Source of the DNA: an uncultured Ectothiorhodospiraceae bacterium
Lineage (GTDB): Bacteria; Pseudomonadota; Gammaproteobacteria; GCA-002705445; GCA-002716945
DNA: 31,362 bases
Reading direction: 5' to 3'
Assembly (NCBI GenBank): GCA_964342835.1
Contig: CAYFGJ010000001.1
Coordinates: 1-31,362, forward strand
Positions 3,442 to 24,111 of the stretch are shown piece after piece (positions within the stretch are counted from its first letter, which is position 1; every line of letters begins with the position of its first letter). The notes below the pieces were generated by a model that was not told where the DNA came from, made no database searches, and saw nothing but the letters and a program-made list of their open reading frames with translations. The position numbers and the translations under genes were made by a program.

Positions 3442-4179
3442 TTAAAATCCAGTATATGTTACTCTTTGATTAAGTTTCAAATCAGCCCGTAATTTGATAG
3501 ATGATGAATTTTTAAGACTTTTATTAACTCTGCTTGATGTATTAGCTAAATTTCCAAATGAGATAGCCTGATGTCCTTCATCAATACAGGCCTCTTCACA
3601 AGCGGTCATCTCTTTGCCTGCGTCTAATCTACCCACACAAAAATTACAACTTTCTACACATCCTTTACCTCTTGGAGCGTTAGTTAATTGTTCAGTTAAA
3701 TTTTCATGAACAAATGATCTTGCTTTAAATGGACATGCCATCATACAATACCTACACCCTATACATGTATGCTGATTTACCATAACAATACCATCTTCAC
3801 GTCTAAATGATGCGCCTGTTGGACAAACATCGCAACATGGTGGATTTTCACAATGCTGACAAAGCATGGGCAAAATTGTAATTTTATCTGTATTGATATC
3901 TTTTATCTTAACTTTTCTTATCCATTGTGGATCAGTTTTAGGTCTATTAAATCCATAAAGTCCATTCTCTTTATTACAAGCATCTATACAAGCAGTGCAA
4001 CTATCAGCACATTTTGCAGTATCAATATGCATAGCCCAACGAGTTTTGTTAGATACTTTTTGTGCAGGAGTTTTAGCTGCGAATGTTCGCTCTGATATAG
4101 AAGGAATAATATATATAACAGCTACAGCTGAAATAGATTTGATTAAAAATTGTCTCCTGCTAGTAGATGTACTATTCAT
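3442..4179 (-). CDS. dsrO: Periplasmic 4Fe-4S protein DsrO
   Basis: Tat signal SRRQFL; Cys motifs CxxxCxxCxxxC, CQHCENPPCCDVCP, CIGCRYCMMACP, CNFC...C. Confidence 0.95.
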   Translation of the reverse strand: MNSTSTSRRQFLIKSISAVAVIYIIPSISERTFAAKTPAQKVSNKTRWAMHIDTAKCADSCTACIDACNKENGLYGFNRPKTDPQWIRKVKIKDINTDKITILPMLCQHCENPPCCDVCPTGASFRREDGIVMVNQHTCIGCRYCMMACPFKARSFVHENLTEQLTNAPRGKGCVESCNFCVGRLDAGKEMTACEEACIDEGHQAISFGNLANTSSRVNKSLKNSSSIKLRADLKLNQRVTYTGF

Positions 4180-4639
4180 GATATTTTATGTTTAATTCTT
4201 TATTTAACTCTGAATGAACTTGAGAAATCATATTTATTTTATGTGTCTTCTTATTAAGGTATTTTTTGCTATATTTTGGTGTAGTTGCATGACATGTAAA
4301 ACAATCAATTTTTGTAGCTGTCTCAATATGACAAGTATAACAAAATTGACCCTCACTGTTTATAGGTATTGCTATACCATTCTCATCATAAGACACATGG
4401 CAATCAATGCAATTAGCCAAACTATGTTGTTTTGTTCTAATACCATCAATCACGGTTAAATCTCTATGATGATATAAAAATTCATAATGCTTTTTTCTCA
4501 TAATATCTGTAGGTTCTACACATTGTTTTAATTTATCAGCTTTTGATGATGTTGTGTGATGTTTATGATTATCATGAGAATATGAAATATTTGAGATAGT
4601 CATTGCTAGTATTAAGATGGTTCTAACAACTGAAATCAA
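4172..4639 (-). CDS. dsrJ: Triheme cytochrome c DsrJ (TTG start)
   Basis: Three CxxCH motifs (CIDCH, CYTCH, CFTCH), conserved CVEP...MR..H...L.H.RD.TV..GIR segment, signal peptide; SD GGAGA upstream of TTG at 4639. Confidence 0.92.
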   Translation of the reverse strand: MISVVRTILILAMTISNISYSHDNHKHHTTSSKADKLKQCVEPTDIMRKKHYEFLYHHRDLTVIDGIRTKQHSLANCIDCHVSYDENGIAIPINSEGQFCYTCHIETATKIDCFTCHATTPKYSKKYLNKKTHKINMISQVHSELNKELNIKYHE

Positions 4640-4661
4640 TTATCTTCTCCGATGTTTAAAT

Positions 4662-21109: not shown

Positions 21110-21424
21110 TTAAAATTGATTAGGAGGTGAACGTAGTTTAGGTGATATTAAAAAAGTAACAATAGATATGTCTTTATAAGACAAATTTTTTGCAGCAATT
21201 AAATCTAAAGATTCTAGATTTTCTAGATTAAGTTGTGAATCATATGAAAAATAATCTGGTGAAGATTGATAATTTGCATGCCTATCATTTGAATCTGATA
21301 ATTTACACAGATATGAAGTTTCATATGTTTTTATATCATTTGATGCAATAGATAGTAGTGGTAGCAATAAAATAGCCACACTTAAAAATATTGTAAAAAA
21401 ATTATGTATTATTGTATTTTTCAA
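21110..21424 (-). CDS. Putative leader/arrest peptide (CruR/DUF2946-like) upstream of the Cu receptor
   Basis: TTG start with GGGG SD, N-terminal hydrophobic signal segment, C-terminal LRSPP three residues before the stop; directly upstream of the OprC-like gene. Confidence 0.55.
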   Translation of the reverse strand: MKNTIIHNFFTIFLSVAILLLPLLSIASNDIKTYETSYLCKLSDSNDRHANYQSSPDYFSYDSQLNLENLESLDLIAAKNLSYKDISIVTFLISPKLRSPPNQF

Positions 21425-21465
21425 ATTTAACCCCGGTAGGTATTATAAACCAAATATTTATATTT

Positions 21466-21503
21466 AAAAAGTATAGCAGGTTATTTTTTATAACCTGCTA
21501 TAC
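21466..21503 (-). terminator. Intrinsic terminator of the candidate sRNA
   Basis: 14-bp perfect stem GTATAGCAGGTTAT/ATAACCTGCTATAC (21471-21503), 5-nt loop, followed by TTTTT on the minus strand. Confidence 0.88.
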
Positions 21504-21507
21504 AACT

Positions 21508-21534
21508 TCACATCGGAGAATGATGAAAGTTCTT
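21508..21534 (-). repeat. 27-nt direct repeat copy 1 (AAGAACTTTCATCATTCTCCGATGTGA on minus strand)
   Basis: 26/27 identical to 21753-21779, with a 21-nt exact core. Confidence 0.95.
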
Positions 21535-21625
21535 TGCAATATTAACAGGGTCAGACATCCTAGGGAAAGTTACTAGTTCTAATGAAATCTTCATATAAAT
21601 TATGTCAACCTGTCCCTGCATAACT

Positions 21626-21644
21626 GCAAATGAGAATCATTATC
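21626..21644. promoter_or_regulatory. Fur box
   Basis: GCAAATGAGAATCATTATC, 16/19 match to GATAATGATAATCATTATC; overlaps the -10 and start site. Confidence 0.85.
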
Positions 21645-21670
21645 ATATAAGAATTAGCCATGTCTGTCAA
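21642..21670 (-). promoter_or_regulatory. Sigma70 promoter of the candidate sRNA
   Basis: TTGACA (21670-21665)-17 nt-TATGAT (21647-21642). Confidence 0.8.
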
Positions 21671-21704
21671 TAGAATATTAGTAACATTTAGTGTTTTTAT
21701 GATT

Positions 21705-21735
21705 AAAATAATACAGCCAGCAAAAGCTGGCTGTA
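21705..21735 (-). terminator. Intrinsic terminator of the FecA-like receptor gene
   Basis: 10-bp stem TACAGCCAGC/GCTGGCTGTA (21712-21735), 4-nt loop, then TTATTTT on the minus strand. Confidence 0.88.
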
Positions 21736-21752
21736 CTACGTATAACTAACAC

Positions 21753-21779
21753 TCACACCGGAGAATGATGAAAGTTCTT
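21753..21779 (-). repeat. 27-nt direct repeat copy 2, starting in the receptor stop codon and running through the 3' UTR
   Basis: AAGAACTTTCATCATTCTCCGGTGTGA; a single A/G difference from copy 1. Confidence 0.95.
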
Positions 21780-24021
21780 AGAAATCTAATTTAACCCCAG
21801 CCATAAATGTCTGTGGTTTATTAGGCCTTTTGCCATAGTTGTGTTCAGAAGCTACTATAGTTTTATCAAATAAATTATCAATATTGATAAAGCCACGAGC
21901 ATTTCTAACTCCAGCAACTTTGATCGGTAAATTCATACTTGAATGCAAGTCAAATAACCATGCTTTACCAGTTCTGTAAGTATTCTCAGCATTAGTAAAT
22001 GTATCGTCGTGATACTTAGCACCTAATGTTACATCCCAATTTGGAGTTTCAGCTCCTAGAGAAACATACATTTGAAAATCTGGTACATAAGCAATAGATT
22101 TACCCAATTGACGTGGTTCGTCATCTGTATTTGTTTTATATTCAGAACTTTGAAGTATACCACTTACTAGTAATGGGTATTTTATTGACTTCATAGATGA
22201 ATGGCCTTTCATTGTTGGTGCTGCAAAAATATCAGCTAATCTGTATTGGAATTCAACGCCATGAATTTCAGCTTTACCGGCATTGTTTGAATCACCAATA
22301 TTACCAGTACATCCGTTGGCAATTAAACATGATTCTAACAAGTTATCGTAATCTACATAAAATGCAATAAGTTCTATAAAGCTATCAGGCGTGCTCATTC
22401 TGAGCCCTACTTCATAATTATCAGATTCTTCAGGAGTAGCATCTGCTGATGTTCCTGCACCAATAGGTGAATAACCTTGATGATAACCAGCAAATATTTG
22501 TGCTCCACCAGGTATTTGATAAACTGTTGCCGCACTCATCATAGTTTCATCATCATTAACATCCTGTTTTGAGTTACCTGGATTAGCTTCAGTTCCATCA
22601 TTAGACTCAGTATCTTCATATCTTAATCCAAGAGTGGTTGTAAAATTTCCATGTGTGATGATATCTTTGATGTGCCATGATTCAGCATCGGTATCTTTTA
22701 ATTCACCAGCGCCCTCTGTAGCACCTGTTTCTGATTTAAATGTTAAAGTGTTATTAGAATCAAGGCCATATTTACGAATAAAACCACTATCTTGTCTTAA
22801 ACGATAATCTTTATGACGTCTATAACCAATTTCTATATCATGGTTACCCATTTGTTTATTTATTACAAACTGAACACCTGTCATTCCATAATCTCTGTGT
22901 CCCATAGCCATTTCTAGATATTCGTTTGAGTCTGTAGCAGTAGTACCTGTAATAATATTACAAGCTCTAAGTTCATTTCCTGCATCTGCTGCACACGCAC
23001 CTTGCATATCTAGAGCTGATAGTGAAACAGATGAAACTGATCCACTGCCATTACCTTGTGGGTCAACATATACTTTGCCCATCTTACCCCAGAGTCTACT
23101 AAATCTTGTTTTATAAAGTTTAGAAGTAACTCTCATGGTTGATGAAGGTTCCATATAATGTGTAAAAATATAGCGGTGATAATCTGCATCCATTTGATCT
23201 GCTGCCGAAGCGCCATATCTTTGGAATGGATCAGAATGAAATGCTGCAGTTGTTAATCCAATGTATGTTTCATTAGATGTTTCTTCAGTGTTTTGACTTG
23301 ATAATTCAAAATATTGATTCCACTTACTCCCAACTGGTGTATATCTGATTTTAAATAAATCACTTGTTTTATCGAAACCAGTATCACCTGGATTACTTGT
23401 CCCTTTAATACTTTTATAACCGTCGGCACGATAGTCATGTATTTCAAAAACATAACTTATTGATGGTGTAAGTTGTGCACCATAATAAGCATGATTTCTA
23501 TTAAAACCATCATCACCTAAAGTAAAAGAATAATGTCCTTTCGTTCCTTTAGTAGGTACTTGTCGCGATATCCAGTTGATAGTTCCTGCTGTTGTTTTTG
23601 GTCCTGTTCCGACTGCTGCAGGTCCTTTTAGAACTTCAACACCTTCCATACGTCCAGTATCTGGATAAAAATACATGCTAAAGTTGGAATACTGCGCAGG
23701 TCCCTGTAGAACACCATCTTCCATAGTATTAATTTTCTGCGATCTTAATGGATTTACCCCTCTCATTCCAAGATTGGTACGTAGTCCATATCCATCTTCA
23801 GTCTGAGAATACACGCCAGGTATACGAGATAATATTCTCTCTGGATCTGTATAATTGTATTTTTTTATTTCATCATCACCTATAAAGTGTGCTGAACCAG
23901 CTTGTTGTGTCTCATCTTGAGAACCAAATACACTTACTGATCCTAGATCTTCTGCATCAGAAATATTAGTTGTTAATATTAATGCTGCACTTATAGATAA
24001 TAATCTTCCTATAATTTTCAT
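21778..24021 (-). CDS. TonB-dependent iron receptor, FecA-like family
   Basis: IPGVY...EDGYGLR.N.GMRG..P.RS.KI..MEDG, MEGVEVLKGP, terminal Phe; Fur boxes upstream. Start placed at 24021 (SD GAGG) rather than 24033. Confidence 0.85.
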   Translation of the reverse strand: MKIIGRLLSISAALILTTNISDAEDLGSVSVFGSQDETQQAGSAHFIGDDEIKKYNYTDPERILSRIPGVYSQTEDGYGLRTNLGMRGVNPLRSQKINTMEDGVLQGPAQYSNFSMYFYPDTGRMEGVEVLKGPAAVGTGPKTTAGTINWISRQVPTKGTKGHYSFTLGDDGFNRNHAYYGAQLTPSISYVFEIHDYRADGYKSIKGTSNPGDTGFDKTSDLFKIRYTPVGSKWNQYFELSSQNTEETSNETYIGLTTAAFHSDPFQRYGASAADQMDADYHRYIFTHYMEPSSTMRVTSKLYKTRFSRLWGKMGKVYVDPQGNGSGSVSSVSLSALDMQGACAADAGNELRACNIITGTTATDSNEYLEMAMGHRDYGMTGVQFVINKQMGNHDIEIGYRRHKDYRLRQDSGFIRKYGLDSNNTLTFKSETGATEGAGELKDTDAESWHIKDIITHGNFTTTLGLRYEDTESNDGTEANPGNSKQDVNDDETMMSAATVYQIPGGAQIFAGYHQGYSPIGAGTSADATPEESDNYEVGLRMSTPDSFIELIAFYVDYDNLLESCLIANGCTGNIGDSNNAGKAEIHGVEFQYRLADIFAAPTMKGHSSMKSIKYPLLVSGILQSSEYKTNTDDEPRQLGKSIAYVPDFQMYVSLGAETPNWDVTLGAKYHDDTFTNAENTYRTGKAWLFDLHSSMNLPIKVAGVRNARGFINIDNLFDKTIVASEHNYGKRPNKPQTFMAGVKLDF

Positions 24022-24047
24022 ATATAACCTCATTTATATTTTTAAAC

Positions 24048-24066
24048 GCAAATAATTCTCATTATC
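24048..24066. promoter_or_regulatory. Fur box
   Basis: GATAATGAGAATTATTTGC (minus strand), 15/19 match; overlaps the receptor promoter -10. Confidence 0.75.
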
Positions 24067-24091
24067 TTATAGATTCCTGTACAAATGTCAA
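24064..24091 (-). promoter_or_regulatory. Sigma70 promoter of the FecA-like receptor
   Basis: TTGACA (24091-24086)-16 nt-TAAGAT (24069-24064), bracketed by two Fur boxes; same -10/Fur layout as at 21642. Confidence 0.65.
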
Positions 24092-24092
24092 T

Positions 24093-24111
24093 AAAAATGA
24101 GAATCATTATC
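24093..24111. promoter_or_regulatory. Fur box
   Basis: AAAAATGAGAATCATTATC, 16/19 match; lies between the receptor and the divergent exbD-exbD-tonB genes. Confidence 0.82.

Follow-up and report, generated by a model that had tools for sequence, protein, structure and literature searches.

A putative iron-starvation small RNA borne by a TonB-dependent receptor gene, with Fe-S assembly genes and possibly dsrJ among its candidate targets

The 31,362-nt stretch of DNA analyzed here (referred to as the window) carries two copies of a hairpin that we consider quite likely to belong to a genuine trans-acting, RyhB-like, iron-sparing small RNA (sRNA), as judged from its sequence features. One copy is located in the 3' untranslated region (3'UTR) of a TonB-dependent receptor (TBDR) gene and the other in a predicted stand-alone sRNA (sR1 and sR2, respectively; Table 1). 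The sulfur oxidation gene dsrJ is a plausible target in this genus, although it is not part of the regulon core, and in our judgment the case for its being a true target that is silenced falls slightly short of an even chance. The broader proposal, i.e., that in small-genome pelagic sulfur oxidizers an iron-starvation sRNA carried by a siderophore-receptor mRNA directly couples the iron supply to dissimilatory sulfur oxidation, splits the reverse-Dsr operon at dsrJ, shuts down the heme- and Fe-S-rich DsrJOP module, and throttles Fe-S assembly, is put forward tentatively.

In the proposed mechanism, Fur would leave its boxes when iron is scarce and two RNAs with the same hairpin would be made. 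The first would be the 3'UTR of the TBDR mRNA (ancestral and family-wide), and the second would be the stand-alone duplicate, an sRNA of about 170 nt that is confined to this genus. The CU-rich anti-Shine-Dalgarno (anti-SD) loop AUUCUCC would nucleate pairing, which would then spread into the arms and open the weak hairpin (6 to 8 kcal/mol). The ribosome-binding sites (RBSs) of mRNAs reading (A/U)CAUCGGAGA(A) would be hidden by this pairing, with occlusion of the 30S binding site. Hfq would probably assist, and either the 3'UTR fragment would be released or a small RNA would be independently transcribed. The core of the regulon would consist of a 59-aa 4Fe-4S protein (Fer4_19) and Fe-S assembly (iscU and, in this genome, also iscX, an IscR-like gene, and hscB), and the RNA would thereby be functionally analogous to RyhB. 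The dsrJ site, which is situated within the dsrAB...LJOPN operon, would be recognized through the same complementarity in this genus and in g3, and through a variant of it in g6 (g1 to g6 denote the six genera of the family). If dsrJ translation were blocked, DsrO (and probably DsrP) would be lowered via the dsrJ/dsrO overlap, and three hemes and several 4Fe-4S clusters would be spared; cleavage inside the dsr operon is also possible. That the RNAs are expressed, that the 3'UTR fragment is released, that Hfq is required, and that dsrJ is affected in any way are inferred.

TABLE 1 Features of the window discussed in the text, ordered by position
Feature	Position	Strand	Description
dsrJ	4172..4639	-	TTG start; 155 aa; three CxxCH heme-binding motifs
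Three additional pairs, GAU (sRNA AUC)	4642..4644	-	Beyond a 1-nt bulge in the sRNA; duplex folding
dsrJ RBS, proposed sRNA target ACAUCGGAGAA	4645..4655	-	SD GGAG at 4650-4647
sR2, predicted stand-alone sRNA	21466..21635	-	About 170 nt; fold far more stable than shuffles (z = -5.7)
sR2 intrinsic terminator	21471..21503	-	14-bp stem, followed by UUUUU
Hairpin copy 2	21505..21533	-	5' arm ACUUUCAUC, loop AUUCUCC, 3' arm GAUGuGAAGU
Predicted Fur box GATAATGATTCTCATT	21629..21644	-	Over -10 element and start site; identical 16-mer upstream of receptor gene
Sigma-70-like promoter	21642..21670	-	TTGACA-17-TATGAT; 11/12 consensus matches
Terminator hairpin of receptor gene and sR1	21708..21739	-	
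Hairpin copy 1 (sR1), seed UUCUCCGGUGU	21750..21777	-	Begins inside receptor stop codon; 3'UTR-borne sibling
TBDR gene	21778..24033	-	Plug and beta-barrel domains; copy 1 in its 3'UTR
Two predicted Fur boxes, receptor/exbD intergenic region	24048..24111	-	24111-24096, exact 16-mer; 24066-24048, over -10 element

A 27-nt block of the sR2 hairpin is repeated about 245 nt upstream, in the receptor 3'UTR, where the seed strand is certainly transcribed within the receptor mRNA. The predicted Fur box of sR2 (21644-21629) is superimposed on the promoter, where it covers the predicted start and part of the -10 hexamer TATGAT (21647-21642). Rather than being a free single strand, the seed consists of the hairpin loop (AUUCUCC) and the adjoining portion of the 3' arm (GAUGu), and it is positioned just before the terminator. 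Genes for Fur, another Fur-family protein, and Hfq (92.7 bits; contig C11) are present in the genome under study (G000), the sR2 terminator with its UUUUU spans 21503-21466, and pairing of the sRNA is probably aided by Hfq. A coding reading of the plus strand was ruled out from the sequence, its open reading frames (ORFs) being just 18 aa and 9 aa long and unequal.

Two marine metatranscriptome contig sets provided RNA coverage of positions 21300-21434 alone, at a depth of about 2, and the sRNA is outside the covered stretch. The metatranscriptome contig ends near 21437, just past the sRNA terminator and a TATAAT-like hexamer, which hints at a separate start for a 104-aa ORF and a second receptor gene. 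Within the 3'-terminal part of the receptor gene there is a promoter-like site (TTGATA-16-TATAGT; 21881-21854, minus strand) that could drive an independent transcript of the 3'UTR hairpin.

All 24 readable receptor orthologues, which cover the six genera, have the hairpin directly after the stop codon, and in each case it precedes the terminator of the parent gene, as in 3'UTR-derived sRNAs. The loop UCUCC(C) and the 3' arm (GAUG or GGUG) are kept across genera, while the outer stem pairs vary by genus; the loop is longer by two bases in g3, where the hairpin was identified by reading the receptor 3'UTRs and not by pattern search. Since the receptor 3'UTRs of all six genera contain the hairpin, the 3'UTR element is, on this comparison, the ancestral form, and the stand-alone gene arose by a duplication that is confined to this genus. 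Fur boxes adjoin the receptor start in g1, and the same holds, by coordinates, for g4, g5, and g6. It is very improbable that the hairpin is without function, i.e., a locally duplicated 27-nt repeat that resembles an SD complement by chance. Short CU-rich sequences do pair with many leaders and the repeat was duplicated locally, but it occupies the same position in six genera although the receptor proteins are only 46 to 69% identical in the part compared.

Both hairpin copies are present in the sister species (G001), in which the terminator stem shows a compensatory change. Its stand-alone copy has a terminator-like hairpin without a U-tract, followed by UUGAAAAUCC, and the sRNA of this species may read through into the next gene. 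A scan of genome contigs with the 17-mer returned chance matches for the most part, the true copies being five MAG contigs. The named assemblies with the hairpin are MAGs of marine Gammaproteobacteria (two of them from Saanich Inlet); we infer that the family is probably the SUP05/Arctic96BD-19 group, and its members appear to be small-genome sulfur oxidizers of oxygen-minimum zones and hydrothermal plumes. In a search of the whole window at the gathering thresholds, no Rfam family was matched (RyhB, PrrF, and NrrF included), and at an E value of ≤10 the region 21420-21820 gave unrelated subthreshold matches alone (best, RsaF; 26.7 bits versus a cutoff of 60).

On the minus strand, positions 4655-4645 read ACATCGGAGAA (ACAUCGGAGAA) and positions 21520-21510 read TTCTCCGATGT (UUCUCCGAUGU), i.e., exact reverse complements forming 11 of 11 Watson-Crick pairs, as the initial annotation had stated. 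That annotation was equally correct in placing the SD of the triheme cytochrome gene inside the match (GGAG, 4650-4647; 7 nt upstream of the dsrJ TTG start at 4639-4637) and in its three further pairs past a bulge, which duplex folding reproduces (GAU:AUC). It had also read the single A/G difference in the second seed copy (TTCTCCGGTGT; UUCUCCGGUGU; 21765-21755) as a wobble, and one A:U pair against dsrJ indeed becomes G:U. The match is contained in the 22-nt spacer (minus strand) between the dsrL stop codon (4664-4662) and the dsrJ start codon. The duplex energy of the dsrJ site and the sRNA is -19.9 kcal/mol (duplex folding, including the three postbulge pairs), and the opening costs are 7.4 kcal/mol for the partly structured dsrJ site and 6.2 kcal/mol for the seed, half of which is in the stem.

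Such a match had been estimated to occur about 0.01 times per window, a figure of the right order of magnitude but with the wrong denominator for a trans-acting RNA. With up to one mismatch allowed, the window contains three matches (0.27 expected), two of which are the repeat itself. Because 8 to 9% of 120 shuffled 18-nt seeds reach an equal best start-region energy (-19.9 kcal/mol) somewhere in the genome, the 11-mer match alone is only mildly unusual (about 0.03 to 0.1 per genome). Several sites of equal strength fall within coding regions of this genome, and an 11/11 match at C20:13896 was rejected as a start-region target, its position being inside the tatD coding region. Apart from an occurrence antisense to the sRNA gene, the 9-mer CATCGGAGA is confined in this genome to dsrJ and iscU. 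The 14 genomic occurrences of ATCGGAGA include five at start positions (dsrJ, iscU, iscX, Fer4_19, and a false start internal to tatD).

As for the gene itself, DsrJ matched no Pfam model; it was recognized by its three CxxCH motifs within 155 aa and by the position of its gene between dsrL and dsrO. The neighboring DsrL, DsrO (4Fe-4S), DsrP (NrfD), and DsrN carry the expected Pfam domains. The dsrJ stop codon overlaps the dsrO ATG by 8 nt, and this overlap is the sole basis for extending the predicted silencing to dsrO and dsrP, a part of the earlier claim that is left unsupported or weakened.

Potential targets were ranked among 1,146 start regions (simple ORF caller; crude starts) on the basis of hybridization and both opening energies, with all hairpin subwindows considered. 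Fer4_19 ranked first for both the stand-alone copy (-13.7; hybrid, -28.9) and the 3'UTR copy. The ranks of the other candidates, with the stand-alone copy given before the 3'UTR copy, were as follows: iscU, 3 and 7; rubrerythrin, 6 and outside the top 25; iscX, 7 and 11; a membrane-protein gene just upstream of aprB, 8 and 12; an Rrf2/IscR-like gene beside iscU, 9 and 10; hscB, 10 and 8; dsrJ, 17 and 26 (i.e., the top 1.5 to 2.3% of the 1,146 regions); and dsrA, 22 and 27. The identities of the ranked targets were confirmed by Pfam. A ranking by minimum-hybrid duplex (dsrJ, 38 and 91) over-penalized long duplexes and was superseded by the subwindow scan.

In the shuffle control, the 22 letters flanking UUCUCC were permuted 80 times with UUCUCC fixed in place. 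Four ISC genes are in the top 25 for the real hairpin versus a mean of 0.61 for the shuffles, none of which reached four (an enrichment spotted after the ranking). The rank of dsrJ in this scheme was 15 versus a shuffle median of 333 (0 of 80 shuffles reached 15), and Fer4_19 came first in 1 of the 80. Since shuffles keeping UUCUCC do not reproduce them, the iron theme and the dsrJ rank come from the seed flanks and not from SD strength alone. These results support a predicted regulon that is strongly iron-themed (i.e., Fer4_19, iscU, iscX, the IscR-like gene, hscB, rubrerythrin, dsrJ, and dsrA). In the accessibility ranking (17th and 26th), dsrJ is not the best target.

Several further observations concern the candidate targets of this genome. 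The reverse complement of the hairpin (ACAUCGGAGAAUGAUGAAAGUU; 21505-21533) closely resembles the Fer4_19 start region (UAUCGGAGAAAGAGAUGAAAGUA; G000 C67:2845-2870), with the codons M-K-V common to both, and an inverted copy of the start region of its best target may have given rise to the seed. The iscU gene is outside the isc-hsc-fdx-iscX cluster, beside a second Rrf2/IscR-like gene (contigs C29:10025-10846 and C3:21894-26678), and both starts are top predicted targets. The aprB start region (ranks 41 and 58) and the preceding membrane-protein gene (ranks 8 and 12) pair with the loop (G000 C85:2683-3518), and APS reductase may be another member of this iron-sparing set. The seed also pairs with a coding-region site, codons 4 to 12 of csrA (-19.6 kcal/mol; G000 C7:2540-2592).

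For comparison across genera, the hairpin of each genome was paired with the start regions of that genome, the other genomes being incomplete MAGs and kin that are not independent of one another. In seed-by-target matrices by genus (720 permutations), own-genus seeds outperformed foreign seeds at iscU (p = 0.007) and at Fer4_19 (p = 0.047). Fer4_19 offers 8 to 14 uninterrupted pairs in g1, g2, g3, and g5, with pairing on the SD side as well as on the AUG side, and the g5-specific 5' arm UAUAUC is opposite a g5-specific GAUAUG. The iscU site reads ACAUCGGAGA(A) in g1, AUCGGAGAAA or UCGGAGAAAUU in g3, and ACCGGAGA(A) in g2, where an A-to-G change in the seed is matched by a U-to-C change in iscU (i.e., a compensatory change). 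For iscX and erpA, conservation of the site stops at this genome or genus, so neither is counted among the core targets. In one g3 genome (G017; L215), the receptor 3'UTR seed has undergone a C-to-A change (CUUCUCAGAUG) and iscU and Fer4_19 are without the AUCGG extension, which looks like co-decay of the regulator with these two targets. Since dsrJ of the same genome retains UCAUCGG despite the mutated seed, its CAUCGG motif may be kept for another reason.

These comparisons also bear on a reading in which the hairpin acts in cis and has no trans targets. It would serve as a 3'-terminal stability or processing signal of the receptor mRNA, and its duplicate would form part of a leader or attenuator, under Fur control, for the downstream 104-aa ORF and the second receptor. 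We consider this reading improbable. The invariable location of the hairpin between stop codon and terminator would suit it, as would the second hairpin of G001, which has no U-tract and past which transcription may enter the next gene, and the lack of a similar Rfam family. However, neither the invariant UCUCC loop nor the GAUG arm would be needed for pure structure, and an element of this kind would not change in step with the starts of iscU and Fer4_19 from genus to genus or yield an ISC enrichment reached by none of the 80 shuffles. In addition, the metatranscriptome contig that starts from near 21437, past the terminator, hints at a separate start of the next gene (depth, 2).

At dsrJ, the uninterrupted helix measures 11 bp in this genome, 11 bp with one G:U pair in the sister species, 11 and 12 bp in the g3 genomes G003 and G008, 9 to 10 bp in g6 (seed UCUCUCCC versus SD GGGAGGGA), and 11 bp with two G:U pairs in one metagenome contig; in g2 and g5 it measures 6 to 8 bp. 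Four of the five g1/g3 genomes have 11 to 12 uninterrupted pairs (two of the three from g3), while the remaining spacer has diverged and the DsrJ proteins are 57 to 65% identical. The flanking pair is U:A in g1 and A:U in g3, with both partners changed. Family-wide, the advantage of own-genus seeds in the same matrices was not significant for dsrJ (p = 0.32). A DsrA-based metagenome scan found five loci with both features, none of the g1/g3 type, and supplied no added evidence of covariation. The pairing is absent from g2 and g5. On the basis of these comparisons, dsrJ looks like a lineage-variable addition to a conserved regulon core that comprises Fer4_19 and iscU.

It is a serious possibility, though not our preferred one, that the iron-sparing sRNA is real and that its functional targets are restricted to Fer4_19 and the ISC genes, with the dsrJ match being a fortuitous look-alike of the sites in those genes (a strong GGAGAA SD plus CAUC) and of no regulatory effect. 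The contrast between dsrJ and iscU in the permutations, the absence of pairing in g2 and g5, the 8 to 9% of shuffled seeds with an equal best energy, the dsrJ ranks together with the costly opening of its site, and the motif kept in G017 opposite a mutated seed are all in keeping with such a look-alike. Conversely, a fortuitous match would not readily account for the 11 to 12 pairs retained in four of five g1/g3 genomes within a diverged spacer, for a flank that differs between g1 and g3 on both partners, for the g6 seed variant opposite a matching SD, or for a 9-mer that is otherwise common to iscU alone. The initial annotation's iron-dependent silencing of dsrJOP is retained in part: the RNA is Fur-boxed and present in two copies, its predicted regulon is iron-themed, and dsrJ is among its top-ranked sites, but dsrJ is not the best of these, shows no significant family-wide covariation, and is unpaired in g2 and g5.

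Three groups of known sRNAs invite comparison with a trans-acting RNA of this kind. RyhB of Enterobacteria is a Fur-repressed, Hfq-dependent iron-sparing sRNA; PrrF1 and PrrF2 of Pseudomonas are two neighboring, Fur-repressed sibling sRNAs with an iron-sparing role; and CpxQ and SdhX are 3'UTR-derived sRNAs of Gram-negative bacteria. The proven Fe-S biogenesis targets of RyhB are iscR-SUA, hscBA-fdx-iscX, and suf (PMC12533949), and erpA is also targeted (PMC5040110). Like RyhB, the RNA described here has a Fur box at its promoter, is predicted to occlude the RBSs of iron-protein mRNAs, and has a predicted regulon that overlaps the Fe-S biogenesis targets of RyhB; it would also split expression inside a polycistronic operon, as RyhB does in the isc operon. 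Unlike RyhB, it is a sequence-based prediction, and it has no sequence or structure similarity to that sRNA (no Rfam match at the gathering threshold or at an E value of ≤10). Its seed comprises the loop and one arm of a hairpin and has an anti-SD core, its ancestral copy is 3'UTR borne, and a dissimilatory sulfur oxidation gene is among its candidates. The two siblings about 245 nt apart, with one seed, Fur boxes, and a proposed iron-sparing role, recall PrrF1/PrrF2; however, one sibling here is a receptor 3'UTR, the other stands alone with its own promoter, and there is no homology. As in CpxQ and SdhX, the seed is situated between a stop codon and an intrinsic terminator, and the regulation and terminator hairpin of the parent are shared, whereas processing or an internal promoter is putative in the present case.

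A literature search found no description of a Fur-controlled TBDR gene as the parent of a 3'UTR-derived sRNA, and nothing on sRNA control of dsr genes or on Fur-regulated sRNAs in SUP05-type bacteria. The RNA is thus likely to be previously undescribed and a nonhomologous addition to the class of Fur-controlled iron-sparing sRNAs. Its origin in a receptor 3'UTR with a stand-alone duplicate, its hairpin anti-SD seed, and its candidate dissimilatory sulfur oxidation targets are, as predicted here, uncommon traits. It offers a clean case of a 3'UTR-borne regulator giving rise to a stand-alone duplicate. Iron is often scarce in the habitat of these bacteria, and their energy metabolism is extremely iron-rich. 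If true, a posttranscriptional link from iron to Dsr, Apr, and ISC would account for the way in which iron is budgeted by a 1-Mb genome that has few regulators, and receptor 3'UTR RNA set against the dsrJOP/dsrAB ratio would serve as a testable metatranscriptome marker.

Other CU-rich loops occur near the seed hairpins. The 5' half of sR2 contains a second small hairpin (21560-21590, minus strand) with the loop UAACUUUCC, which is conserved in G001 and may be a further CU-rich pairing site. The receptor 3'UTRs of g2, g4, g5, and g6 (e.g., L218, L225, L228, and L232) contain a large hairpin after the seed hairpin, with CU-rich loops (e.g., AAUCUCUCCCUUAAG and CAUCAUUCUCCAUCUU) that are possible second anti-SD seeds.
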